From the UHGV virus genome UHGV-1488776: a stretch of DNA of 64,000 nt; one strand, 5' to 3'. Positions within the stretch are counted from its first letter, which is position 1. Each line of letters begins with the position of its first letter. Under the pieces are notes generated by a model. It was not told the DNA's origin. It ran no database searches and saw only the letters and a list, made by a program, of their open reading frames with translations. Source of the DNA: a virus. Shown here piece by piece: positions 42,007 to 60,279 of the stretch. Made by a program: the position numbers and the translations under genes.

Positions 42007-45000
42007 TTATGCGTATTGTTGGATGACGGCCAGAACGTCCGCCACGTTGTGTTTTGTCTCGATAATCCACCAGTTACCTGGGAAGTCGCTGTTCTTCGCC
42101 TTCGCTGGCAACCAGCGAGCGCCGAATTTCGCCTTGATTGCGTCTTTCGCACGGAAAAGAACCCCTTTCATGCCGGAGGCTTCCTGAAGCCCAAATACCT
42201 CGCCAGCGGCGAATTTTGGTGCGTACATCATCTTCAGGTCGGCGGTGGATACGCGATAATTCAGACCAAGAGACTGAGCTATGCTGGTGGCATCACCCTG
42301 TATTGATGATAACTCTTCTTGTTTCTCGTTTCTGGCAGCAATTTCTTCCTCCGTGATGTTGCCAAGGGCCAGGTTTATCCGATCAGCGTCTGCCTGTTTC
42401 TCTTCATCGGTGCGCCCGGCAAGTACCGTGTTAATTCTGTGCAATATCTCCACATGATTCTTGCGCATGCTGAGCAATTCCGGCGTAACCTCGTTAAGGT
42501 CCACCAGCCCAAGGATGGCAAGGTCGGTAAACATTGATACCAGGTTGTAGGTCATGCGATAGCTGAGTTGCCCATAGGCTGATGGCAACTGCACCGCATC
42601 CATTTTATAGGCATCCATAAATTTAGAGCCGTCGTTTACGACATCCGCAATTGCCGGTGTGATTTTCCCTGTGGTGGCGGCCTCCCTGATTGCTGTTACC
42701 CACGATTGAGTCAGCGCGGCGACTGCATGATTCAGATTGGCTTTCCGTTCTGCTGCAATGCGCGCGCTTGCTGCGTCCATTGTCTGCTTGATCTCGTCTT
42801 TATTGCTGTAAATGCCAATGGTGCCAAACTGTGCTGTGGTGATCTCATAATCTGACGCCCGGAACTCATTGGTACCGAAAATGGCATTGGTGACTTCAAG
42901 TTCAGAATCCCCGTTACGAGTAGCCCCCTGGCTTGTTTTTTCCGGCATTCTGGCGATCGCATCCGCTATTTTCTCCTGAATTGCTTCAGGGGATAGCGTA
43001 TCTCCGTATGACGCGATTACATCGCCATAATTGGAGCCAAACAGTTCAACCAGGAATGTTTCTGCCGAACGGATCTGGCGGTTATTCCCTTCCGACATCA
43101 TACCAAGCACCCATTTTGCAATTGACGACTTCAGCGCGCTGTCACGGCGATCCGGGTAAACCGCATGCTTCAGTGGGTCCGTATAGGTACCAACAAAATC
43201 AATGCTATAGCCTGACTCTGTAGTCTGAACGCCGTACGAGTCAGTTATTTTGATCATGCCGCGCTGCTGGAAACGGTAGAAATCGTCACAGGAAATGATG
43301 TCGTTAATCCCGGCGATGGAGACGCCACCACTGATTTTCTGCATAACAGCATCTTCATCGGGAGTTACATCCACCTGTTTATCCAGCGTCTTCACATCCC
43401 AGTTACCCGATTTGGTGCCTTTGAAGGTAAAGATGATCTCCACGTCTGCGCGCTGGCTGTCGAAGTCCAGCGACTTAATGCGAACGATATCACCGGCATA
43501 ATCGTAGTATTGGCCTACACGCCATGAGCGATCGCCGATAACAAGGAACTCACTCGCATGGTTTACCAGGTCAGGATCAACATCCAGAATGCCTTTATTT
43601 AATGCATCCTCCACCAGCGGGCGCAGGCGTTTGATATCCGTCGCGGCCTTCTGAGTACGGTTCAATAATTTCTCATAGCGGGAGATGGCTTGAGAGATAT
43701 TAGCCTTGCGCTGAATGGCGCTTTTCAACGACGCGCGATACTGTGCTAACAACATACGGTCTGTGTGATGGACACTCCCCCAGCGTGCCTTCCAGTCTGC
43801 GTTATCCGCTGCCTTGGCCATTGCCGCCTGTTTGAATTTAGCTACCTCGGCGGTGGTCTTTTCAAGTTCCGCTTTGCTTCGCTCCAATTCAGCGGTAAGT
43901 ACCTCCACATCCTCACCAGCTGCGTGCTGCGCCTTGATGTAGTTCTGAAGGTCGATAGTAGCCTGTTCTTTCTGGCGAGCGCGTTTCGCAGCTTTCGCCT
44001 TATCCATTTGAACCTGCATCATTGCCAGACGTTCGCCGTCATCCTTCGCGGTATACATCTGCATTTCGATCATATCGTTGGCGTCGGCGTTCTCCATTTC
44101 TGACTTATCTGAACGGAGGATATCGGAGATCCAGCCTGCTTTACGCTTCAGCGTCTTCAGTCGGTATTCATCGAAAGACCCCTTGCCGCAGTAGTAGTGA
44201 ACGCGAACGCTTGCACGGTTGGAGCCAACTCGGGCACCGCGACCGTTTCGTTGCGCAATACTGGCTGGAGTCCATGGCAACGTCAGATGATGGATGTCAG
44301 TCGTTCCTCGATGCAGGTTGATACCCACCTCTGCCTTTTTGTTGCAGATGATGATCGGAGTCCGGCCCTCCTGGAAGTCGGCTGCAATCTTTTCCAGACC
44401 GCCCAACGACATTTCATTTTGCTGCGCGATATAGGCGTCATACAGAGCCATTTGCTCGTTGTATTTCGCTATCTGTGCATCTGTTGGTTCATCCGGTAAC
44501 TCTTTCGGCGGTTTAACCGCTTTCAGTTTCTTACCGGTTTTACCTGCCTCGGCAACCGTCTGAGCATTCAGTATCCCCACCTTTGAAGGTTCAAGGTTAA
44601 GAGCATTGCAGATAATGCGCTTGAGCTTCTGGTGCTGCGTTTTTTCATCGGTGAAGATGATTTGCTTACCTTCCGGGAAAAACTCCTTCAGCGTGGCAAT
44701 CAGCTTCGCGTATTTGGGCGTAACGGGGTGAGTTACGGTCTGTTCGTCAATGCCAAACCTGGCCAGGCGCTTATTCACTTCCTGCTCGAACGCTTCCGGA
44801 ACCTGCAACTGAATAAACTCGCCCTTATCTATCAGGGAGTATTGCGATTGCTGCGTGATTGAATCATCACTGTCGTCGTCTTCGCTGGTGGCTTGTTTAG
44901 GCAAACTGTCCGCCAGCTGCTGCACCGCATCGGCGTACTCCGGCAGGAAACGATAGGTGATCCGGCGATAGTACAGGTCCATGTCAGTACATACGCGGTC

Positions 45001-48000
45001 CATATCCCTGATTATTGAGAAGATCGGACGGGCTTTCTCGTGCTCAATCACGCCGTCTTCATTGACCGAGGTCGTTACGCCATTGTTGGCTTTGGCCGCC
45101 GCTTCCGCCTGCTGACGCAATTCTTCATACGCCGCCAGTTGTTCTTCAGTAAGTGGTGCATCCTGCTGGTGTTCGTCCAGCTCCGGGATCTCCACGGTAT
45201 CCTTAACGTCTTCCGCCGTTTTAAGCGTTACCCAGCGATGGAATATACCGCGCAGCGCATCAAGGTTTTCAAAGCCCACCAGCGCCATTTTTTCTTCAAC
45301 TTCACCGCTAATTTTCTGTACCGTTTCCAGCCTGGTCTTGCCGAAGAATTTAACGAAGTCATCAGGACCGTAGATCCCCATGTTCTGCCAGTACTCCTTC
45401 GGCAGAACATGAGAAAGCATGTTGTATGCATCGATCGGGGTGTTAACGACTGGCGTTGCAGTCAGGAGAACCGGCCCGCGCCCACCATTCTTTTTCATCA
45501 GGTACGCGTTTTTAATTGCCATATCTCGCGCCGATTGCGCCACCGCGCTGGTGGGCAGATAGGCCAGTTGTGACGCTTCGCGACCATTTTTATAGCTATT
45601 GCGGTAGTTGTGACCTTCGTCAGCGATCACACTATCGAAGCCCATATCCTCAAAGTACGGATACTTCTCTGCTTTTTCGGTGCCGGTATCTGAATACTCC
45701 GACAATACCCGGCGACGCGCGGCCTCTTTGCGGTGGGAGTCGGAGTCCATTGCGCTGGCTACGCGTCCGGCGGCAACGAAGTCATAAAGCATATCCTGTG
45801 CATGCTCATCTACGGTGTCATCACGTAGCGGAATGCGGGCGTATTGTTCTTTGGTAAACACGACTGCACGGTAATTTGAGTGCGGGATCGCGTTCATCCG
45901 CGCCGTGATAGTGGCTTCATCTGCCAGCTTAAGAGCATCGCGCATAACTGGAGTGCCATCAGTACCAAGAACAGGTTTACCGTTCTCATCGAGCACCTGC
46001 ACCTGGCGAATCTGATCGCCATCCATCAGCACATCAAGACCGACGAACAGGTAGTTACTGAATGCCTCTTCACTCAGGAATTCTTTTGCTTCGTAATACC
46101 AGTTTTCCAGCACTGATTTAGGCACTACATACGCAGTACGGGTGGAGCGACCGTTCTCATAGTTGAACGCCTCAAGCGCCAGCGCGGTCGTGGTTTTACC
46201 CAGCCCGGTGCCGAAGCCCAGGATGCCGCGCCCATCTTCGGACAGTCGGCGCACCTCGCTATTCTGGTAATCAAATGGCTGGCGCTTACCGCTTAATCCC
46301 TTCAACCCAAGCGGATCGCCAGAGTGTTCATACGGGATATTGCTATTGAACACATCGTTGTATTTGGCAACCAGCTCATCGTAGCGATCGTGCGTCTTGA
46401 TCCACTTATTGAACTGGTCCTCAAGCAGTGCCATCTGCTCGCGGTAGCCGTTCGCCGTCGCGCTATCTTTGCCACCGATACGCGCACCATTGAGATACTT
46501 TTCCAGCTGTGCCGGGAACCCGGTCGCGTTTTCACCTGATTTACGGTCCCACTCGTAGCGAATCTCACCTGTTTCTTTATCCTTGCGCTGGACGACACCG
46601 TATCGGTGCCCGACGAACAGACCATCACCACCGTGATAGGTGTCAGAAACCATTTCGTCGCCTTCCAGCTGCACTGACTGCACATAGCGCAGATCCGGAT
46701 AGCCGTTTTCCTGCAAAAATTCCAGAATGACGGAACGGTCGAACCAACGGCTATTGAGCTTAAACCGGATATTCTCTGCTGGCGTCTTGATGCGCTTCTC
46801 TTCGATAGCTGCCAGCTGATTAAGGACGTTGTTCTTTACTGGACCGTCGGGGAGTGTGGCAAGGAATTCCTGTTTTGGTGCCACTATCTCGTTAATGTCG
46901 CCGCTGGTGGCGCGGGCGAACGGAAAAATCCCGCCATACGGTGAAACCGCAATGCCAGGGGTGCTGGCCAATAAATTAAGCAACTCGTCATCACTGGCTG
47001 GCAGTTCGCCGGTAAACGCAAGGCGGAAATCATCGAGCTGGATTGGATCGCGAGTGAGATCACTGTAGAGATAACGCAGGGTGTCCTGATAGCTGGTGGA
47101 GTCATAACTGGCGCTGGAATCATGCGTAACCAGTTTTCCTGTCAGCTCGTCAGAAATAGTGCCATCCAGCTTAATTGCACCACGGAAAGCAAACCAGGCG
47201 CGCGCACCGCTCCCCGATAATTTCGCTATCGGACCGCGACCGGGGTTACCAAAACGGTCAATCTCTGCCTGCAAACGGGATACCAGAGAAAGGCGCTGCT
47301 GTTCGATTTGTTCAGCACTATGCCCGGCGGCCTTCATGTCCTGATATTCAATTAACATCCGGCCAATCATCGCCCCGCGATACAAGCGTTCACGGTATTT
47401 TTCAGGCTGGCTGTTAATCCAGTCCACCAGCTGCACCATATCGTCGCTGATTGATGTGGTGTATTTATCGCGGACATTTGCCATCTGGGTAAATGTCATA
47501 CCGAGACGGCCTTCTGTTGTAGTCAGGTTACGCTGAAGAGCCTCCCAGCTGTCCGCGCCATAACTGGCAACATCAATCTTCAGCTCCTTCCCTGCATCAG
47601 ATTCAATCCAGCGACCACCAGCATATTTTTGCCATACGCCATTAATCAGGCGCATTTCCCCTTCATCAACAACGTCTGCGGTCGGTGACGGTTCAGCCAT
47701 ATTGAGCAAAGACCAGTCGATACGACTTTCGAAACGATGAATCAGCTTCGCTTTAAGAGCCTGGTTATCAATCTGCCCGTCGGCACGAACCTCAATACGC
47801 CCCTGGAATCCCTTCTCCTGGGTGCCATGAACAAACCGGCGACCGTCCTTTTCAAACCACTTGCCAGAAATAAACGTTGGCCAAAGCACATTTGCCGATT
47901 CGAGAGTGCTTTCATCCACCAGGGGGATTTTCTCAGCCATCTCTGCCGGATGTTTGCGCATCAGCACCACATCTACGACCGTACTGGTCCCGTTAGCGTC

Positions 48001-48774
48001 AAAAGTACCGGTAGGCAAGCGGTGGGCACCAAGAAATTCAGCTTTCCGTGATAGGCGCAGGCGTAACCGCTTCATGTTTGAACCTGAAACAATGGACGGC
48101 GGCACAATCACGCACATGAATCCGCCTGGCTTTATCTTGTCCAGCATGCGGAGCATGAAGTAAGAACCCATGTCCGTTTCTTCTGCGTAAGGCTTATCGA
48201 TGTTGCGTGTGTTATCACGACCACCGAACGGAACGTTACCCACAACATGGTCGAATGAATCGTTAGGCGTGCTTACAGCCAGTTGTTCGAACGGAGAAAT
48301 CTGTACGCTGTCTTCCGGGTGCAACAGCTGGTTTATACGACCGGAAACACTGCTGATCTCAGTCGCGGTCATCACCGTACCAACCGGTTTTGTCTCATTA
48401 AAAACGCCGGTTCCCGCCGATGGTTCCAGAGTGTTACCTACGTCCGCGCCGTAGAGCTTCATGATCTCCCAGACACCTTCAGCGATCGGCTTTGGTGTGT
48501 AATATTCGGAGACGGACCCGCCAATGCCGCCTTCGCCGGTGTACCCAGCCAGGATCTGGCGCTGTTCATCTGTCAGTGTCGCGCCGTCCACCAGCGAATT
48601 AAGCAAATCTATCGCCTTCTGATTCGCCTCCCGGCGTAGTCGGTCATAGCTTTTGCCTTCCACCTTTTCCACGCCGTATCTAATCGGCGCTCGGTGAGAT
48701 GTTATTGCCCTAATGTATTTCAATATTTCGCTGACACTTGAACAGCGAAACACCCCCATAGATAGCTTGTTCAT
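42007..48774 (-). CDS. darB: DarB-like methyltransferase-helicase (defence against restriction)
   Basis: 2255 aa; N-terminal N6-MTase motifs (EPSAGTGVF, GNVPFGG); SF2 helicase motifs GFGTGLGKTTTA and VIADEGHNYRN; length matches P1 DarB as I recall. Confidence 0.85.
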   Translation of the reverse strand: MNKLSMGVFRCSSVSEILKYIRAITSHRAPIRYGVEKVEGKSYDRLRREANQKAIDLLNSLVDGATLTDEQRQILAGYTGEGGIGGSVSEYYTPKPIAEGVWEIMKLYGADVGNTLEPSAGTGVFNETKPVGTVMTATEISSVSGRINQLLHPEDSVQISPFEQLAVSTPNDSFDHVVGNVPFGGRDNTRNIDKPYAEETDMGSYFMLRMLDKIKPGGFMCVIVPPSIVSGSNMKRLRLRLSRKAEFLGAHRLPTGTFDANGTSTVVDVVLMRKHPAEMAEKIPLVDESTLESANVLWPTFISGKWFEKDGRRFVHGTQEKGFQGRIEVRADGQIDNQALKAKLIHRFESRIDWSLLNMAEPSPTADVVDEGEMRLINGVWQKYAGGRWIESDAGKELKIDVASYGADSWEALQRNLTTTEGRLGMTFTQMANVRDKYTTSISDDMVQLVDWINSQPEKYRERLYRGAMIGRMLIEYQDMKAAGHSAEQIEQQRLSLVSRLQAEIDRFGNPGRGPIAKLSGSGARAWFAFRGAIKLDGTISDELTGKLVTHDSSASYDSTSYQDTLRYLYSDLTRDPIQLDDFRLAFTGELPASDDELLNLLASTPGIAVSPYGGIFPFARATSGDINEIVAPKQEFLATLPDGPVKNNVLNQLAAIEEKRIKTPAENIRFKLNSRWFDRSVILEFLQENGYPDLRYVQSVQLEGDEMVSDTYHGGDGLFVGHRYGVVQRKDKETGEIRYEWDRKSGENATGFPAQLEKYLNGARIGGKDSATANGYREQMALLEDQFNKWIKTHDRYDELVAKYNDVFNSNIPYEHSGDPLGLKGLSGKRQPFDYQNSEVRRLSEDGRGILGFGTGLGKTTTALALEAFNYENGRSTRTAYVVPKSVLENWYYEAKEFLSEEAFSNYLFVGLDVLMDGDQIRQVQVLDENGKPVLGTDGTPVMRDALKLADEATITARMNAIPHSNYRAVVFTKEQYARIPLRDDTVDEHAQDMLYDFVAAGRVASAMDSDSHRKEAARRRVLSEYSDTGTEKAEKYPYFEDMGFDSVIADEGHNYRNSYKNGREASQLAYLPTSAVAQSARDMAIKNAYLMKKNGGRGPVLLTATPVVNTPIDAYNMLSHVLPKEYWQNMGIYGPDDFVKFFGKTRLETVQKISGEVEEKMALVGFENLDALRGIFHRWVTLKTAEDVKDTVEIPELDEHQQDAPLTEEQLAAYEELRQQAEAAAKANNGVTTSVNEDGVIEHEKARPIFSIIRDMDRVCTDMDLYYRRITYRFLPEYADAVQQLADSLPKQATSEDDDSDDSITQQSQYSLIDKGEFIQLQVPEAFEQEVNKRLARFGIDEQTVTHPVTPKYAKLIATLKEFFPEGKQIIFTDEKTQHQKLKRIICNALNLEPSKVGILNAQTVAEAGKTGKKLKAVKPPKELPDEPTDAQIAKYNEQMALYDAYIAQQNEMSLGGLEKIAADFQEGRTPIIICNKKAEVGINLHRGTTDIHHLTLPWTPASIAQRNGRGARVGSNRASVRVHYYCGKGSFDEYRLKTLKRKAGWISDILRSDKSEMENADANDMIEMQMYTAKDDGERLAMMQVQMDKAKAAKRARQKEQATIDLQNYIKAQHAAGEDVEVLTAELERSKAELEKTTAEVAKFKQAAMAKAADNADWKARWGSVHHTDRMLLAQYRASLKSAIQRKANISQAISRYEKLLNRTQKAATDIKRLRPLVEDALNKGILDVDPDLVNHASEFLVIGDRSWRVGQYYDYAGDIVRIKSLDFDSQRADVEIIFTFKGTKSGNWDVKTLDKQVDVTPDEDAVMQKISGGVSIAGINDIISCDDFYRFQQRGMIKITDSYGVQTTESGYSIDFVGTYTDPLKHAVYPDRRDSALKSSIAKWVLGMMSEGNNRQIRSAETFLVELFGSNYGDVIASYGDTLSPEAIQEKIADAIARMPEKTSQGATRNGDSELEVTNAIFGTNEFRASDYEITTAQFGTIGIYSNKDEIKQTMDAASARIAAERKANLNHAVAALTQSWVTAIREAATTGKITPAIADVVNDGSKFMDAYKMDAVQLPSAYGQLSYRMTYNLVSMFTDLAILGLVDLNEVTPELLSMRKNHVEILHRINTVLAGRTDEEKQADADRINLALGNITEEEIAARNEKQEELSSIQGDATSIAQSLGLNYRVSTADLKMMYAPKFAAGEVFGLQEASGMKGVLFRAKDAIKAKFGARWLPAKAKNSDFPGNWWIIETKHNVADVLAVIQQYA

Positions 48775-53071: not shown

Positions 53072-53268
53072 ATGTGTAAAAAACGACTGAAAGAAAAGCG
53101 GTGGTCCAGACGCCAACAAAAGCACGAACTCGCTAAAAAACGCCAAAGTTGGCAATGGCACGCGTTTTTAACGAACAGAACACCACGAGATATTGCTTTC
53201 GCTGGTGGGAAAACATTCCTAACCCACCTGAAGACGCAATACATCAGTTTTTAAGCAGAGAAAAGACT

Positions 53269-54057
53269 ATGACAGCACAAAAAACTAAAACCATTCAATA
53301 CCGCCTACGTAATGGCCAGAGTGTCGAAGTGACCATCAATAATGATGGAGTACCTGGCGAAAAAGTTTCTATCTCTGATCTGGCTATCGAAAAAACCATC
53401 ATGTGCCACCTTGGCTTTACTGAAGAAGTGAGCAAAAAGCATGGTGTAGCAATCTGGAGCGCAATGGATACTGGTATGCGCAAATTCATTACTGCTCGTA
53501 CCCCAGGGATGACCATGATGGACCTCATGCAGATTGCGCCGCTGTTTGAATGTGAGCCTTTAGATGTATTCAGCAATCCAGCTATCTGCCAGCAGTTATA
53601 TGGTGAGATGAAACTCGCGGTTACCCCCATTGTGCTGCATGAAGGATCGCTTGCTGGCGTGTGGAAAGTAGAGCGTATTTCAAGCTACATGCCTTTCCAT
53701 GTCAACGGCGTAATCACTGGTGAAAATCAACCTGTTTCCGTTATAAAGTCAGACCTCAAGCGCGCAATTCTTGAAGCAAGTTGTCGAGTTGTCGGGCTGG
53801 GCAAACAGTCTTATGTTTCCTTCCCGGCTGGCCCTGAAGGCCCGGCAGAAATTCTGATTATGGATGCCGATCTGCTCTGGCAAATACAGTTTCTGATTGG
53901 CAAAAGCATCATCCGCGCTGAAGAACTCGATCAGTACATTACCTGCACGATGACGGATGAAGTCAAAAGTGTGGCTATAGCCAATGCCCGGAACCTATGT
54001 CGTGCTGCATTAACAGAACTGCAAGAAAACACCACGGAAGAAGTGGAAAGCGATTAA
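53269..54057 (+). CDS. hypothetical protein
   Basis: ORF open from 53149; MTAQKTKTIQ start at 53269 more likely. Confidence 0.45.
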   Translation: MTAQKTKTIQYRLRNGQSVEVTINNDGVPGEKVSISDLAIEKTIMCHLGFTEEVSKKHGVAIWSAMDTGMRKFITARTPGMTMMDLMQIAPLFECEPLDVFSNPAICQQLYGEMKLAVTPIVLHEGSLAGVWKVERISSYMPFHVNGVITGENQPVSVIKSDLKRAILEASCRVVGLGKQSYVSFPAGPEGPAEILIMDADLLWQIQFLIGKSIIRAEELDQYITCTMTDEVKSVAIANARNLCRAALTELQENTTEEVESD

Positions 54058-54062
54058 AAAAA

Positions 54063-54088
54063 ATCCCGCCGATTGGCGGGATTTCTTC
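54063..54088. terminator. bidirectional rho-independent terminator
   Basis: ATCCCGCC-gatt-GGCGGGAT flanked by A8 and TTTCTTC. Confidence 0.65.
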
Positions 54089-54395
54089 AATATACGATCT
54101 GGTCTACATGATCACCAAAATCATCGTCGTCGTCCTCATCGCCACCATCTACTGCTGGCCAATCAACAAACCAGCCAGCGTAAAGATGCAGCGTTCGGAG
54201 AACATCACTTGCGGGAGCATCAAGGGTGTTAACGAATCCCATATAGCTATTGGGATTTGCTCCAGCTATGGCTTCAGCGATCATGTCCTCGGTAATGTCA
54301 CCGGAGATAATGCTTAAACGCCCGGAAACTTCTTCATTATCATCAAATTCGATAATGGCATCTCCGCCTAATGGCGCTGCGATTTTAATCTGCAT
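54087..54395 (-). CDS. acidic hypothetical protein, last gene of dar operon
   Basis: 102 aa, C-terminal DGGDEDDDDDFGD; overlaps upstream gene end. Confidence 0.45.
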   Translation of the reverse strand: MQIKIAAPLGGDAIIEFDDNEEVSGRLSIISGDITEDMIAEAIAGANPNSYMGFVNTLDAPASDVLRTLHLYAGWFVDWPAVDGGDEDDDDDFGDHVDQIVY

Positions 54396-57372
54396 TATTT
54401 AGCTCCTTTGCCACACCTAATAACAGTTCCAGCAATCCGTCACCATTCATCAGTGATGCGGCAGCGGCCTCTTTGTCATGATACAACTGAAGAGCCATAG
54501 AGAATACTTCCGTTGCTGACGTTTTGGAAATAGTCGGTGATTTCTGCCGAATTTTCCCGGAATTACTCACTGAGGCTGGCGGGTATACCTTCGCCATATA
54601 AATATTACTCAATCGAGATCTGAAGCACCATTCAGGCTTGCCACGCCCACCGATATTAACGAAAGATGGCTTATCCCCTTCAACATTGGCCTTCAGGAAT
54701 GACCGGGCTTTCTCTAACAAACCAGGGTTACTGTACTCAAGATGATGACCCAGCTCGTGCCACAGTGCACTTGCATTTTCATCGTTCAAATTGACAGCAA
54801 CAACACCATTAAGATTTGCATATGCCCTTCCCTGGTGGTGAACCACCTTTGTTAAGGTCGAAATTTTACCGCCGGTCAGGCGATAAATATCAGCAAGTTC
54901 CTTGCGCAGGTCTATCCCACCATTCTGTCCAGCGCGGGCTTCTTCCACTTCTTCCGTGATAAAAGAGTCGGCCCACTCAAGAGCTTTTTCTTCAGATACG
55001 GATGAGTTGGCGATCGCACTGTTCATGGCAGATAACACTTTCTCGTGGACCGAACCCATACTTCGCTGATTCATTTGCCAGCGTGTCTGCGGGTTATATG
55101 AGAATCGCTTAAGTAGTTGGTCAAGCTGCTCAAGTTCTTCTTCACTGACATACTTTTTAGCCTCACCAATAATGCCAGGGAGAATATTGCCGTTAGGATT
55201 AAACGCTCGCGAAAGGAAGAGTTTCAGCGCCCCCATGCCCTCCGATGCTTCAATATCACCAATAACCCGGTTAACAATGGCCGCACTCTTCGGATTAGCA
55301 TCCGCCAACGCTCTGGCTACGATTTGCAGGGACGATACGACCTCACGCTGCATATCCGTCCTGATCTCATCAATAAACTCTGGCGTTATGCCGTGCTCTT
55401 TAAGGATATCCCGGCCTTCCGCCGTTACCCCATCGATATCACCGACATGTTTATTAACACGACTTTGCAATGCCTTAAATGCCTTCAGAATTCCACGGGC
55501 ATCACCCGCTTTACTAACGGCCTTCCTGAATGCTGGCAAGAAGTCAGAGTTAACCTCATTTTGTTGATCGGCCCACTGAATGGAGGCTTCTTTCATCTCG
55601 TCCAGAGTCAGATCACCCAACGCGGTATGGTCTGTGAATATGAGCGACAACCTCTGAACCATTTCTGCCAATGGTGATGCCGAATGCGCCGCGCTAAGGA
55701 ATGCTTTCACCCTGGTTGGGCGAATGGAAAACCAGTCAATAGCTGGTGGCATATCTCCGTTTTTTATCGCCTGCGCTATCTCATCAAAGCCGTCGCGCCC
55801 AAGGGAGGATGCGTGATTTAACAATCCGCGAAGTAACGAATTGCTGATACCGAATAATCGGCACCATTTATTCACGTCGGCAACAGGCATTCGAACAAAA
55901 TGCGCAAGCACTTGTACAAGCTGTTCATCCTGGGGATCTGTACGGGAAAGCAGCCTGATCAGATGAATAATGTCTTTGATGCCGGATGCCCGATGTAATA
56001 GCAAGCTGGTATATGGAGCAACACCGTTGTAACTACCGCCGGAAACGGACTCGAAAAGACCGCCGGATATCCCTTGCATGCCTTCGTTTTCCAGTTCCTG
56101 AGACACCTGGCGAAGGATATCCTGTAACGACACATCACCACCGCCAAACATATCCCCCAGCGCCTGGCCCTGGTGCTGTAACTCATCATTGATACGTTGA
56201 GCCATCAATTTAAAGGCGGTGGCCATACGCTTCGCGCTACGGTTATTCGCGACGATGAACAACGCGAGAGCTTTCACTTCCGGGGCTGTTTCGCTGAACA
56301 TATCCCCCTGAGCAATAACATCGGTAATATGTTGGCCTGACTCCTTCGATTGCCTTACCAGGTCTACCGCATCTTTCAATGCCGCCAGCGCCTTTTTATC
56401 GAGACTATCCGCTGTCTCAATACCATCAACAATAGTTGTCACAGCCTGCTTGTGCGCTTCTCCTGATAAAGCCTGCATCTGGACAAAATCATTGGCTGCC
56501 GCATTAAGCGCCGTCAGAACATTACGCATATCCGGATCAGGTTCTTCTGCAACCATTCTTACCAAGCGCGCATCCTTATATGCCTTGGCAAAGATCGCGT
56601 TTTGTATACGGTCAACAAGTTGCCGTGTTGGTCGCCCATCTTCCGTTACAAGGCCAGCAGCCTGTGTGGCACCAACTTGCGTCATGAATCCGCGAATAAA
56701 CGCGTCATTACTGCGGCTAAGCAGATCTCCGCTTTCTGATGGGTTAAACAGCGCCATCATCGCCGGAGTTATGCTGTCGGCATCAACAAAAGCCTTTTCA
56801 CTGGCTGCCATTTCCTGGAGATCAGAAATATTTGAGTCCTTGGCAAACTGAACACGGTCAACCTTCGTTAACCGGCGGCGCACCAGTACCGGAGCCGTCA
56901 TTGATTCAACCTTTTCAGGTCGTATTCCGAATTCGGTCGCATGTTCAATCAGGTACTCCCGATACCGATCCGCATTACCGTCCTGATAGGCTTTAATGAT
57001 CCCCATGGTCCTCCCATTACCTGACTCAACGGCATTGTCCTCACCAATTATCGGCGCGCCATGGCTGGATAAACCGGAATCAGTAAGCTGAGCAGGCCGC
57101 AAATCTTTGGATATCTGGTTAACCTGAAGAAGGCTGGATGCGCGGGTCCGGTCGCGCGGTTGAAGTTCCTGGGGATAGTCAGGATTAATTTTCCCATCCA
57201 GAGTATTGGATACCAAAAGAGCTGAGGCATCGACGATATCAAACGCTGTTTTTACCTCGTCTCCCTTCGCTGTCACCACATACGAAACCCGCCCATAATC
57301 GGGCAGGTTCTTTAGCAGCTCGATCAGCGTTTCTATGCTGGTGGCCATTACCACCTGATCGCTTAAGCTCAT
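54385..57372 (-). CDS. ddrB: DdrB-like capsid antirestriction component with HExxH motif
   Basis: 995 aa; position after darA-ddrA; C-terminal ALWHELGHHLEY zincin-like motif. Confidence 0.6.
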   Translation of the reverse strand: MSLSDQVVMATSIETLIELLKNLPDYGRVSYVVTAKGDEVKTAFDIVDASALLVSNTLDGKINPDYPQELQPRDRTRASSLLQVNQISKDLRPAQLTDSGLSSHGAPIIGEDNAVESGNGRTMGIIKAYQDGNADRYREYLIEHATEFGIRPEKVESMTAPVLVRRRLTKVDRVQFAKDSNISDLQEMAASEKAFVDADSITPAMMALFNPSESGDLLSRSNDAFIRGFMTQVGATQAAGLVTEDGRPTRQLVDRIQNAIFAKAYKDARLVRMVAEEPDPDMRNVLTALNAAANDFVQMQALSGEAHKQAVTTIVDGIETADSLDKKALAALKDAVDLVRQSKESGQHITDVIAQGDMFSETAPEVKALALFIVANNRSAKRMATAFKLMAQRINDELQHQGQALGDMFGGGDVSLQDILRQVSQELENEGMQGISGGLFESVSGGSYNGVAPYTSLLLHRASGIKDIIHLIRLLSRTDPQDEQLVQVLAHFVRMPVADVNKWCRLFGISNSLLRGLLNHASSLGRDGFDEIAQAIKNGDMPPAIDWFSIRPTRVKAFLSAAHSASPLAEMVQRLSLIFTDHTALGDLTLDEMKEASIQWADQQNEVNSDFLPAFRKAVSKAGDARGILKAFKALQSRVNKHVGDIDGVTAEGRDILKEHGITPEFIDEIRTDMQREVVSSLQIVARALADANPKSAAIVNRVIGDIEASEGMGALKLFLSRAFNPNGNILPGIIGEAKKYVSEEELEQLDQLLKRFSYNPQTRWQMNQRSMGSVHEKVLSAMNSAIANSSVSEEKALEWADSFITEEVEEARAGQNGGIDLRKELADIYRLTGGKISTLTKVVHHQGRAYANLNGVVAVNLNDENASALWHELGHHLEYSNPGLLEKARSFLKANVEGDKPSFVNIGGRGKPEWCFRSRLSNIYMAKVYPPASVSNSGKIRQKSPTISKTSATEVFSMALQLYHDKEAAAASLMNGDGLLELLLGVAKELNNAD

Positions 57373-57384
57373 CCCTGTTACGCC

Positions 57385-57750
57385 TTATGCTGCCTCTTTA
57401 ATGTTGGCGGCTATCCATGCCGCCGTGTGCTGTTTAACCTGGTCCAGGTCGATGTATGTGCCAACATATTGATTCAAATCCTGCAAGGTACCGATAAATG
57501 CATCGGTGCTCTGATCGACGAATTTATCAGCCAGGAAATCAGCAACCAGTTTTGGCACACCATCATGTTCCGAAGGTTGTTTTTCCTCGCCACTACCACC
57601 GCCGGACGCGCCGTACCCCATCTGTTGCATGATCTGGTCAATTTCATCGCTGATATCCAGCAACTCCATACCACTCGCGGTAGCCGCTTTGGACATCAGA
57701 GCATCCAACTTATCGCTGAGATCCATTAACTCAATAGCTGATAGTGTCAT
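57385..57750 (-). CDS. ddrA: DdrA-like small acidic protein
   Basis: 121 aa; start overlaps darA stop. Confidence 0.5.
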   Translation of the reverse strand: MTLSAIELMDLSDKLDALMSKAATASGMELLDISDEIDQIMQQMGYGASGGGSGEEKQPSEHDGVPKLVADFLADKFVDQSTDAFIGTLQDLNQYVGTYIDLDQVKQHTAAWIAANIKEAA

Positions 57751-59666
57751 GCCGCTACCCCCGCTTTCTGGATTGCTACCAACAGATCAGCCAGGTGGCG
57801 AGCTGCGCCGTTAACCAGCTCTTCGTTTTCCTCAAAACGTCCGGCAGCCTGAAGGGCTGCAATCGCTTCCCGGACATTGCCCCGGGCGTTACGGATCTCC
57901 GCCATGTCAGTGCTTTGCATATCCATCACGTTATTGAGATATTCAATGGCTTTATTAGCCTCTGCATCTGCTTCGCTAACCGTTTCATCAGGCTGTGCCG
58001 GGGCCGGTTCTGGCTGAGTAATCTCACCGACTTCGGCCTGCAATGCATTGATCATGCTCTGCACCATTTTCTCGGTGCCAGCGCCCCCAGGAAACGCAAT
58101 ATTGGGGAAAGTTTTTTGAAACTGAGTTTTCAGCATTACGCAGAACTCGTCTGGTGAGCTGGTGGCCAGCTCCAGAGCTTTTTGTGCATATTTGCCAAAC
58201 GGACCATTAGTAAGTGTCTTCGCCAGGAAATCGAAAGAATCCTCGCGAGGCAATAACTTCAGGTCGTACTCACTCATTTGCTGATCAGAAAGCGGGGTAT
58301 CGTAAGTAGCAATGCCGTAGCGTGCATATTCATAATACGGGTCACCTTCATCAGGGCGCGGCAGAATTGCTTTGTTACCTTCAGGTATTGCGCCAGGGGC
58401 CGCCGGACGCATTTGCAGGGCATATCGATATGCACCTACAGAGACTTCTGGTTCAGGCGAAGAGCTACCGGTATCCTCCGCTGGTTCAGGTTCGACGTTT
58501 TCCGGTTTATGTTCTTCTGGTTGGACCAGGTATTCCGATACATTACCCGCTTTATAGGCTTTAAACAGCTTGCCGATCGCATCTGCCATGTCCACACCCT
58601 GTATGGATTTAGCCTTGATCATGTATACGCTGCCATCCGGATCGGTTAACTGGATATACCCTTCGCCGTCCCCAATGAATTGCTTCATTGATGCACCATT
58701 ACTGAGCGTCGCTTCCCCGTCCATATGCATACGATTTTTGATACTGGCAAGGCGATCCGTCAGCGCGCGAGAGTGCCCACCAGTCATCCCCGCAGGGGCA
58801 ATGGTATCGCGCCCACCAGTGCGATTGAGCCGATCAATCTCCCCCTGCAAACGCTCATTCTCTTCATAAAGAGAATCCGCTTCCGATGCAACAGCGTTAA
58901 TTTTCTGCTCCAGATCTGCCTTCTGCCCTTCTACCGCTGCCACCTGATCCGCGAGGTCGCTCATGGCGTCCTCTTTCTGGTCACTGTCAGCCTGTAGTTG
59001 GGTTATTTCATCAACAAGGGCTTTTTTCTTCTTCTGCGCACGCTGGAATTTTGCCGAGTTTTTCTCTGCAAGGTTGGCAAGTTTCATGGTGACCTGCGCC
59101 AGCGTCATATCACGTCCACTCATCGGAGCAACGGTGTGAGTAACGTCTTTTTTATTCAGTAAGAACTGGAAAGCAACCAGCGTATCGCTATTGGTGATCC
59201 GGTTTTCCGCTGTCGGGCTATGAAACAGAATGCTGATAGTCTGACCATCACTGAGCGGAATAATGGCTGGCAGGACCGGCAGCCCGTTAACGTTACGTGC
59301 CCGGCCAATTTCAGCCCCGCCGATCGCGCGTGCACCGTTCTGGGCCACATCCCCCGTTTTATCACTCCCCGCAGAGATTCCGGTACCATTCAGCTTCTGG
59401 TTCAATGCCCGGACAAATGCCTGCATGGTCCGGTGTAACTGCAAACGAGTAGAACTAATCGCCTCCAGTAAATCCGTAGCACACCAGTGGATTGGCGTGT
59501 CATAGAAGAACGTAGCCTCGATTTCCTCCAGGGTGTTGGATTCCGTCATCAGATAGCGGTCCTCACCGGCCATTAATGCGCGATATTCATCATCAGTCAC
59601 TGGCGGGGGAAGCACGTCAAGCCCAGGCTTGATCGTCACCCCTTTATTGATATTGAACTGTTCCAT
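57747..59666 (-). CDS. darA: DarA-like internal head protein (defence against restriction)
   Basis: 639 aa; central coiled coil; shares KNSAKFQ segment with upstream Hdf-like protein. Confidence 0.65.
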   Translation of the reverse strand: MEQFNINKGVTIKPGLDVLPPPVTDDEYRALMAGEDRYLMTESNTLEEIEATFFYDTPIHWCATDLLEAISSTRLQLHRTMQAFVRALNQKLNGTGISAGSDKTGDVAQNGARAIGGAEIGRARNVNGLPVLPAIIPLSDGQTISILFHSPTAENRITNSDTLVAFQFLLNKKDVTHTVAPMSGRDMTLAQVTMKLANLAEKNSAKFQRAQKKKKALVDEITQLQADSDQKEDAMSDLADQVAAVEGQKADLEQKINAVASEADSLYEENERLQGEIDRLNRTGGRDTIAPAGMTGGHSRALTDRLASIKNRMHMDGEATLSNGASMKQFIGDGEGYIQLTDPDGSVYMIKAKSIQGVDMADAIGKLFKAYKAGNVSEYLVQPEEHKPENVEPEPAEDTGSSSPEPEVSVGAYRYALQMRPAAPGAIPEGNKAILPRPDEGDPYYEYARYGIATYDTPLSDQQMSEYDLKLLPREDSFDFLAKTLTNGPFGKYAQKALELATSSPDEFCVMLKTQFQKTFPNIAFPGGAGTEKMVQSMINALQAEVGEITQPEPAPAQPDETVSEADAEANKAIEYLNNVMDMQSTDMAEIRNARGNVREAIAALQAAGRFEENEELVNGAARHLADLLVAIQKAGVAA

Positions 59667-59667
59667 G

Positions 59668-60279
59668 TTAATTTCCTGCTTTCAGTTGCTTAAGACGGCG
59701 TTTGAGTTCGCCATTTCGGGCCTTTTCGTTATTGAGTCGGCCTGTCTCCTTATCCAGCTTCGCCCGCAAATCAGTGATCTGCTGTTGATTGAAAGACACC
59801 GAGTTCTGCGCTGATTTATAAGCGGCAACCACCTGAGCATTCCGCTGTTTTGCCTCTTGCAGGCGCTGAAAGTTGGATTTTACTGCCGGTTTCTTGTCTA
59901 CCGGATTGGCAACACGTTTCGCTTTGGCGATCAGTGATTTCTGGAATTTTGCGGAGTTTTTGCGGGCCGCTTGCCCCATGACGGTACCAAGCGTCTTGAT
60001 ATCCGGCGACTGAGCGTTAGGAATAGCTTTTCCATTCAGCCTCACAGACGATATATCGCCAGTATCGTTTACCTGTATGGCAAGAATTTGTCCGTCGTTA
60101 AGAACCAGCTTTGCGGTTTTAACTTTAACGCCATCTTTCGTTGTTGCGCGGTTGCTGGAGTCAACCTCAATTACCGTAACACCGGTTTTATTGATCGCCG
60201 CGATAAGGGATTTCAGCCCCTTTTCATTAACCTGGTCAAAATCGACCGTTGCATACTTATTTTTCGTCATCTGACACAT
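59668..60279 (-). CDS. hdf: Hdf-like protein (homologue of DarA fragment)
   Basis: 203 aa; KNSAKFQ and coiled-coil segment similar to DarA; directly upstream of darA. Confidence 0.55.
   Translation of the reverse strand: MCQMTKNKYATVDFDQVNEKGLKSLIAAINKTGVTVIEVDSSNRATTKDGVKVKTAKLVLNDGQILAIQVNDTGDISSVRLNGKAIPNAQSPDIKTLGTVMGQAARKNSAKFQKSLIAKAKRVANPVDKKPAVKSNFQRLQEAKQRNAQVVAAYKSAQNSVSFNQQQITDLRAKLDKETGRLNNEKARNGELKRRLKQLKAGN

Follow-up and report, generated by a model that had tools for sequence, protein, structure and literature searches.

A P1-like ddrB operon

The window analyzed here, the whole 64,000-nucleotide stretch of UHGV virus genome UHGV-1488776, is that of a P1-like phage, and the gene in focus is a 995-residue open reading frame plus stop on its minus strand (54385..57372), which the list of open reading frames and its translation give as running from ATG to stop. 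The product is identical to P1 DdrB (AF234173) at 981 of 995 residues (99%) and is essentially the same protein, with no difference of substance; none of the 14 substitutions falls at a conserved catalytic position, and the nucleotide sequence is 97.7-98.6% identical to 19 P1-like phages. Its upstream partners occupy 57385..60279 on the same strand and appear as in P1: hdf (59668..60279, minus strand; 203 residues with a DarA_N domain), darA (57747..59666, minus strand; 639 residues with DarA_N and DarA_C domains), and ddrA (57385..57750, minus strand; 121 residues). Downstream, the frame list and the P1 annotation identify hxr (54087..54395, minus strand; 102 residues, 98.4% to P1 hxr), the first 11 nt of which are shared with the end of ddrB. 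The order hdf-darA-ddrA-ddrB-hxr is the same as in P1, and this synteny marks the gene as the ortholog of P1 ddrB. The window also harbors darB (42007..48774, minus strand), the 2255-residue product of which has N6 methylase, Eco57I, and SNF2 helicase domains. The preliminary description had called the protein DdrB by position, and the call is right, given the 99% identity to P1 DdrB, the Hdf, DarA, DdrA, and Hxr neighbors, and a ddrB-ParB domain. The Deinococcus protein also named DdrB is unrelated, the shared name being a coincidence.

DdrB is a head protein of the P1 virion and one of six head-packaged proteins by which P1 and transduced DNA escape type I restriction; according to the literature, DarB is cargo whose incorporation into the head needs DdrB. 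All features of DdrB given below lie on the minus strand. The ddrB-ParB domain (Pfam PF18763, E=1.3e-39) covers residues 36-167 (56872..57267) and, together with a conserved extension, makes up an N-terminal module of residues ~20-440 (56053..57315), where sliding-window identity among 11 DdrB-like proteins runs from 0.3 to 0.67. A poorly conserved middle region follows (residues ~441-740; 55153..56052), with identity of 0.04-0.16 and many gaps, and then the C-terminal metallopeptidase (MPTase) module (residues ~741-995; 54388..55152), delimited by the HMMER family, AlphaFold2 modeling, and a stand-alone homolog. As a prediction, the metallopeptidase is already known: the P1 GenBank record AF234173 (Lobocka 2004) describes DdrB as a "possible metallopeptidase", the P7 annotation AF503408 has Prt as a "putative protease", Lenart 2013 (PMC3650047) records a suspicion based on HExxH, and Iyer 2017 (J Bacteriol; PMC5512222) names the P1 DdrB C-terminus among the zincin-like MPTase domains of polyvalent proteins and proposes self-cleavage. 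No experiment on metal-dependent peptidase activity of DdrB was found in the literature searched.

Conservation and predicted fold of the C-terminal module

An HExxH motif had been claimed for the C-terminal part of the 995-residue frame, and inspection of the minus-strand translation confirmed it: ALWHELGHHLEY corresponds to residues 869-880 (54733..54768), with H872-E873-L-G-H876 at 54745..54759. From the composition of DdrB itself, 0.026 matches to HExxH would be expected by chance, and six-frame translation of the window, with its 147 stop-free stretches of 100 residues or more (29,141 residues altogether), holds no other. Using HMMER against 1.84 billion representatives at a threshold of E<=1e-3, we placed the C-terminal ~255 residues in a family with at least 381 members. 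HExxH is present in 154 of the 156 relatives retrieved, and an alignment of 35 domains with pairwise identities of 20-46% shows R849, H872, E873, H876, E879, E914, Y925, and E955 to be invariant, with partial conservation of H877 (77%), K928 (88%), Y930 (97%), and S958 (>90%). We rejected the reading of HExxH as a chance motif on account of this conservation in distant relatives. Also rejected was a metzincin assignment, since HELGHHLEYSN departs from HExxHxxGxxH by having Glu for Gly and Asn for the third His. Word-indexed homolog searches with the C-terminal fragment and the family alignment found only near-identical P1-like fragments.

Members of the family differ widely in architecture, from ddrB-ParB plus MPTase, through InPase with two ParB domains plus MPTase, to MuF followed by two to three tandem MPTase copies, and the catalytic-type residues are invariant in every tandem copy too. 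The module also occurs by itself, in a homolog of 257 residues (at locus L014) that aligns to DdrB residues 761-994.

AlphaFold2 modeling of residues 736-995 gave a pLDDT of 89.8 and a pTM of 0.84, and a second model of the domain gave a pLDDT of 89.9. In both, DSSP assigns a helix, three strands, the HExxH helix, and a later helix opening at E955-x-x-S958. The N-terminal helix (residues 822-832) and three-stranded sheet (residues 842-860) of this predicted zincin core (54793..54909) include a conserved FYRLTGG-type motif and the invariant R849 (54826..54828). The predicted active-site helix, residues 867-881 (54730..54774), bears ALWHELGHHLEY with HExxH inside it in both models, as well as the invariant E879 (54736..54738). 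Between the two catalytic helices lies a conserved, family-specific insert (54583..54633) with E914 (54631..54633) and a PYxGKxY-type motif containing Y925, K928, and Y930 (54583..54600), which possibly lines the active site. The conserved E955-V-F-S958 (54499..54510), with E955 at the start of the modeled helix of residues 956-962, is a candidate "glutamate helix" motif; in sequence and secondary structure it fits the gluzincin motif (E,H)xx(A,F,T,S,G) described for E229 of ArdC. At this level it supplies a candidate for the third ligand downstream of HExxH that the preliminary description had proposed as a check, and E955 is the likely third metal ligand. As modeled, the order of the elements is the gluzincin layout. 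[quoted passage not shown]

Comparison with known zincins

In the polyvalent-protein MPTases the zincin core is made up of an N-terminal helix, three strands, the helix bearing HExxH, and the Glu helix (Iyer 2017, PMC5512222); the DdrB C-terminus is predicted to have the same core. It further resembles these domains in carrying an acidic residue three positions past HExxH (E879 in DdrB, Asp in one of the Iyer clades) and in occurring in multidomain proteins delivered from phage heads, together with ddrB-ParB, InPase, or MuF and sometimes in several copies. Unlike them, the DdrB clade inserts ~75 residues, including the invariant E914 and Y925, between the HExxH and Glu helices, and its strand region carries the invariant R849, where one Iyer clade has a conserved His at the end of strand 2. 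The clade also escapes the Pfam model built for such domains: PF18818 (MPTase-PolyVal) matched neither DdrB nor its C-terminal fragments (E<=10), nor any of 35 relatives, with ArdC as a positive control matching at 1.2e-48.

Other comparisons with characterized zincins gave similarly faint signals. At a threshold as loose as E<=10, neither full DdrB nor its C-terminal fragments matched a zincin model of Pfam or NCBIfam. No zincin came up in PDB sequence searches either, whether the query was the whole protein, a C-terminal fragment, or the family profile; weak single-sequence matches of family members were enriched for Pfam zincins (M91, Zincin_1, SprT-like, reprolysin, and lethal factor). A Foldseek search of the PDB with the 260-residue model returned only noise with no zincin, and a search of BFVD returned only uncharacterized family members. 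With the trimmed model, PprI/IrrE took the first three places among the PDB matches (8slm, 8sln, and 3dti), none of them significant (E=0.29-1.0, best probability 0.63, TM about 0.25, ~90 aligned columns, 16-17% identity), and the other weak matches included M1 peptidases and DUF955 proteins. Comparison of the family profile with the ArdC peptidase family by hhalign gave a score of 21.5-22.0 (P=0.01-0.018, probability only 2.5%), which 4 of 600 column-shuffled controls also reached. This alignment reaches from the N-terminal helix through the RAY strand to HExxH, leaves out the Glu helix, and pairs DdrB residues 822-860 with FFAATGA and RAYY of the ArdC peptidases; run in global mode, hhalign found no match to ArdC. 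The zincin-type signature proposed earlier holds up, with HExxH on a predicted helix directly after a three-stranded sheet and with the invariant E955; matches to solved zincins are weak.

ArdC of plasmid R388 (PDB 6I89 and 6SNA; PMC7213743), the closest solved candidate relative, holds its metal through H201, H205, and E229 in the crystal structure, where the zincin core of helix, three strands, HExxH helix, and later helix is also seen. Like DdrB, it is an anti-restriction protein that arrives with incoming DNA, it combines HExxH with a Glu-helix metal site (in DdrB a predicted one), and its nearest solved fold is IrrE/PprI, which is also the best, though non-significant, match of the DdrB model. 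The two differ in that ArdC is a member of PF18818 (1e-48) and DdrB is not matched, in the N-terminal partner (ArdC-N, which binds ssDNA, as opposed to ParB), in delivery by conjugation rather than in a phage head, and in the short inter-helix spacer of ArdC. Its metal-ligand mutant E229A was without phenotype, and the same study found no substrate and no cleavage of a restriction enzyme (PMC7213743). Deinococcus IrrE/PprI (COG2856, peptidase M78) is a small gluzincin whose partner, DdrO, it cleaves at a single specific site; apart from the non-significant Foldseek matches it has no sequence-level relationship to DdrB, and its biology is unrelated.

The silence of the curated zincin models and the lack of significant fold matches would suit a domain in which the motif is non-catalytic, serving a structural or adaptor role with HExxH as a relic or a structural metal site, or one that hydrolyzes a non-peptide substrate; plaque formation proceeds without ddrB, and the protease site of ArdC is dispensable for the known function of that protein, both in keeping with such a reading. 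Relics usually lose the Glu first, however, whereas here E873 and both His are kept without exception, along with three more Glu residues, at 20-46% identity and in every tandem copy, and the models predict the topology of a zincin core. We therefore regard this explanation as very improbable.

Proposed function in Dar assembly

Our preferred reading, with a rough probability of 55%, is that the C-terminal ~255 residues of DdrB are a true gluzincin-like MPTase domain of the polyvalent-protein kind known from phages and plasmids, most likely active, and that it performs limited proteolysis among the complexed Dar proteins as the P1 head assembles. Of the proposals for such a step, the best documented has DdrB cutting itself in its poorly conserved middle, at around residues 690-740, which would part a ParB-bearing N-terminal piece of ~76 kDa from the ~30-kDa protease module. 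Processing of DdrB to 76 kDa is given by Iyer 2017 (PMC5512222), citing Lobocka 2004 and Walker 1981, and a cut yielding this fragment would lie at about residues 690-700, in the region of residues 441-740. Virion mass spectrometry covered 59.5% of full-length DdrB, the equivalent of about 86% of a 690-residue fragment, and packaging may therefore extend to the C-terminal part. A purely self-releasing role is weakened by module proteins that stand alone, such as the 257-residue protein at L014, in which there is no evident partner domain to set free. The usual candidate for processing of DarA and the capsid is Pro, the T4-type prohead protease of P1, and Pro could instead process DdrB. By our estimate, about nine (L/I)xE sites of the T4-type prohead protease are expected by chance in a protein the size of DdrB.

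Gene neighborhoods of distant relatives add a clue that is new. We sampled six contexts of family members outside the MuF proteins, and in all six the member directly follows Hdf-like, DarA_N, and small-protein genes; the small protein preceding it is homologous to DdrA in five of them, and a gene for a DarB-like methylase-helicase often comes next. Some members lack ParB altogether, being proteins of 620-708 residues with no other known domain. At one locus (L009), a 629-residue module protein is followed by a separate protein with InPase and ParB domains, and the stand-alone L014 protein adjoins a 425-residue ParB protein. In distant phages the protease module thus trails DarA and DdrA homologs and is sometimes a protein of its own, a context that leaves room for action in trans.

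Under such an alternative, the module would be a maturation or loading factor that cleaves or remodels DarA, DarB, Ulx, or DdrA in the assembling head, with self-cleavage secondary, and this would explain why DarB incorporation needs DdrB. The placement of the module beside Hdf-like, DarA_N, and small-protein genes in every sampled context, the frequent DarB-like gene after it, and its occurrence apart from ParB all agree with this, as does the proteolytic processing that DarA is known to undergo. Against it, direct evidence of a substrate is absent, Pro already stands as the candidate for the DarA cuts, adjacency can mean co-assembly without catalysis on partners, and the contexts sampled number only six. 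We hold this alternative to be possible at rather long odds. We are equally tentative about a broader form of it, in which the module would be less a self-releasing domain than an autonomous core component, acting in trans, of a widespread Dar-type cassette (Hdf-like, DarA-like, DdrA-like, MPTase protein, and DarB-like, beside a portal gene), processing or licensing DarB or DarA for head loading or release.

Dar proteins are ejected along with the DNA, and a further explanation makes the domain an injected effector with a proteolytic target in the host, for instance a component of restriction-modification or of another defense. Effector action is listed as a possibility for domains of this kind by Iyer 2017 (PMC5512222), and the MuF-fused relatives carry two to three tandem, active-looking copies with no other recognized cargo domain. 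Protection in trans would be expected of a freely diffusing protease that destroyed restriction enzymes, yet Dar guards only DNA from the same head and a co-infecting Dar-minus phage is still restricted, so the host targets that the preliminary description had raised beside packaged Dar proteins fit badly. The known role of ddrB is moreover in DarB loading, and ArdC cleaved no restriction enzyme and showed no phenotype as the E229A mutant. An effector role is accordingly doubtful, less probable than action in trans on Dar partners, though not as improbable as a non-catalytic motif.

The metallopeptidase prediction for DdrB has been standing since 2004, and catalytic-site mutants have not been reported. 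The value of the present analysis lies not in discovery but in confirmation, in the residue targets it supplies (H872, E873, H876, and E955, plus R849, E879, E914, and Y925), and in the gene-context clue. If true, a working DdrB protease would give Dar assembly a concrete step, either self-cleavage or the processing of a partner, and would help in engineering P1 for the delivery of proteins.

DdrB and its HExxH motif

The single ATG-to-stop frame at 54385..57372 on the minus strand encodes a 995-aa protein that the preliminary description had named DdrB by position. That name was correct, because the protein matches P1 DdrB at 981 of 995 residues and its same-strand neighbors Hdf (203 aa, DarA_N domain), DarA (639 aa, DarA_N and DarA_C), DdrA (121 aa) and Hxr (102 aa) are those of P1; DNA identity to 19 P1-like phages was 97.7–98.6%. 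In both the window and P1, portal, protease, lysis and ssb genes stand between the darA operon and darB (42007..48774; 2255 aa, methylase and SNF2 helicase). The hxr frame opens 11 nt before ddrB stops, and the resulting overlap (54385..54395) suggests that this putative Xre-like repressor is translationally coupled to ddrB. Between isaA and hxr (53072..54090), about 1.7 kb of the P1 reference, comprising isaB and an IS1 copy, is absent, the two blocks aligned to P1 being only about 30 bp apart; in P7, JL22 and phi456 this isaB/IS1 region is replaced by a porin gene (nmpC/ompD). An antisense frame within ddrB (56450..56851, plus strand; 133 aa, TTG start) matches the P1 annotation 'iddB', a putative gene with no Pfam match.

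Translation of ddrB places ALWHELGHHLEY at aa 869–880 (54733..54768, minus strand), and the HExxH reported earlier was confirmed within it as H872-E873-L-G-H876 (54745..54759, minus strand). Only 0.026 such motifs would be expected by chance from DdrB's own composition, and it is the sole HExxH among the 29,141 residues of the window's 147 stop-free stretches that reach 100 aa. Sequence conservation and predicted topology support the protease-like domain proposed from this motif, a proposal that had been made before. The P1 GenBank entry reads 'DdrB: unknown protein function; possible metallopeptidase', the gene is annotated 'prt, putative protease' in P7 and 'putative metallopeptidase' in phage JL22, the idea was on record in Lenart et al. 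2013 (PMC3650047), and Iyer et al. 2017 (PMC5512222) defined the C-terminus of DdrB as a zincin-like MPTase domain. We found no literature report of a catalytic-site mutant or biochemical test of DdrB, and the metallopeptidase is an already published prediction.

Conservation and predicted fold of the C-terminal domain

Curated libraries recognized only the ddrB-ParB domain (aa 36–167, E=1e-39); at E≤10 the C-terminal part still drew no match. Searching exhaustively with HMMER and aa 736–995 as the query, we collected 381 relatives at E≤1e-3, and HExxH was present in 154 of 156 retrieved family proteins. Across an alignment of 35 domains that are 20–46% identical, R849, H872, E873, H876, E879, E914, Y925 and E955 were invariant and G835, A852, Y930, S958 and G986 at least 90% conserved, giving the signature hWHEhGHHhE ... 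E ... PYhGKhY ... TEVhSMG. Relatives with two or three tandem protease domains (P0024, P0051, P0071, P0094 and locus L013) retain an intact motif in every copy; these copies are C-terminal to a MuF head-protein domain in P0024 and P0094, and no further cargo domain was recognized. At the sequence level, this pattern looks like a selected catalytic site, not a chance motif or relic, and a domain that is non-catalytic or not a peptidase is highly improbable. No Pfam or NCBIfam model exists for the family (aa 741–995), and its PHROG families 2299, 20397 and 33618 are labelled 'unknown function'. The whole DdrB clade (at least 381 members) goes undetected by PF18818, Pfam's curated model of polyvalent-protein metallopeptidases, and the domain is outside PF18818 as currently modelled.

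Confident AlphaFold2 models of aa 736–995 (pLDDT 89.8, pTM 0.84) and aa 815–995 (pLDDT 89.9, pTM 0.86) place a helix (aa 822–832) and three strands (aa 842–860) before the helix bearing HExxH and E879 (aa 867–881), followed by a helix (aa 883–896), a hairpin and short elements with E914, Y925, K928 and Y930, a helix (aa 956–962) opening with E955-V-F-S958, and two more helices. This predicted order is that of the zincin core of Iyer et al. (PMC5512222), who also describe in a phage clade an extra acidic residue that corresponds to E879, three residues past the second His. The same helix, strand, HExxH and Glu-helix order is seen in the crystal structure of the plasmid antirestriction protein ArdC (PMC7213743), where H201, H205 and E229 are the metal ligands and the Glu-helix motif is (E,H)xx(A,F,T,S,G); E955-x-x-S958 fits this motif in a predicted helix, making E955 a candidate third ligand.

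Links to solved zincins were weak but concordant. Foldseek of the 260-aa model found no relevant PDB match; with the trimmed model, PprI/IrrE zinc peptidases ranked as the top three (8slm, E=0.29, probability 0.63; then 8sln and 3dti), with M1 peptidases and DUF955-type proteins among the other weak matches, none of them significant. When hhalign compared the DdrB family with a profile built for the ArdC peptidases (PF18818, whose positive control gave E=1e-48), the score was 21.5–22.0 (P=0.01–0.018, probability 2.5%), which only 4 of 600 column-shuffled ArdC profiles reached; the aligned segments were the N-terminal helix, where FYRLTGG pairs with FFAATGA, the RAY strand and HExxH. Zincin families were also over-represented among weak single-sequence Pfam matches of family members. 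We consider a zincin-like domain very probable, and the metallopeptidase interpretation, supported by conservation and predicted topology, appears reasonable.

Dar-type cassettes in distant phages

Gene context was examined for six non-MuF family members 21–47% identical to DdrB (loci L005–L007, L008, L009–L010, L011, L012 and L014). All six contain the same cassette of a DarA_N protein (501–810 aa), a small protein and the MPTase-family protein; the small protein is a DdrA homologue, directly or through a chain, in five, and an Hdf-like gene (about 205 aa) is present in the four where the upstream sequence read sufficed. A DarB-like methylase/helicase gene (2068–2390 aa) often comes after the MPTase-family gene, with a T4-type portal gene after it in one context. 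In a second class, MuF head-protein domains are fused to two or three tandem MPTase copies, and some of the family's PHROG matches are to 'minor head protein' families.

In other elements the two modules of DdrB, ParB and protease, are split between distinct genes. At L009 (8001..14368) the gene for a 629-aa MPTase protein is followed by one for a 1493-aa InPase+ParB protein, while L014 (6610..8774, GCA_000307305.1), a P1-like element, encodes a 425-aa ParB protein that shares 57% identity with DdrB aa 32–185 and then an MPTase protein of 257 aa that stands alone and shares 26% identity with DdrB aa 761–994.

Possible roles of the predicted peptidase in head assembly

The best explanation, at a probability of roughly 55%, is an active gluzincin-like peptidase that would carry out limited proteolysis inside the Dar complex while the head assembles. 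DdrB is non-essential, plaques forming without it, and its published role is to help incorporate DarB into the head. An injected effector acting on host proteins is unlikely, because Dar protects in cis only and ArdC sets a precedent (PMC7213743) in which no restriction enzyme was cleaved and E229A had no phenotype. Processing or loading of Dar partners in trans is a less favored possibility, raised by the stand-alone protease of L014, which has nothing obvious to release.

The leading specific version of limited proteolysis within the complex would be DdrB self-cleavage, as Iyer et al. 2017 (PMC5512222) proposed to account for a reported 76-kDa form of the protein in heads. In a comparison of 11 DdrB-like proteins, aa ~20–440 and ~780–995 are conserved and aa ~441–740 little conserved and gap-rich; this middle region (aa 441–740; 55153..56052, minus strand) has no domain assignment, and the middle third varies even among DdrB-like proteins 39–47% identical overall. 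A 76-kDa N-terminal product would stop near aa 690–700, within the variable region, leaving about 30 kDa, the size of the protease module. These sizes fit self-cleavage without proving it, and taken alone it falls somewhat short of even odds. The virion proteome covered 59.5% of full-length DdrB, which would be an unusually high ~86% if only a 690-aa fragment were packaged, so heads may contain the C-terminal part as well. What is new here is the gene-context linkage, the conservation of the Dar-type cassette around this putative peptidase family in distant phages.
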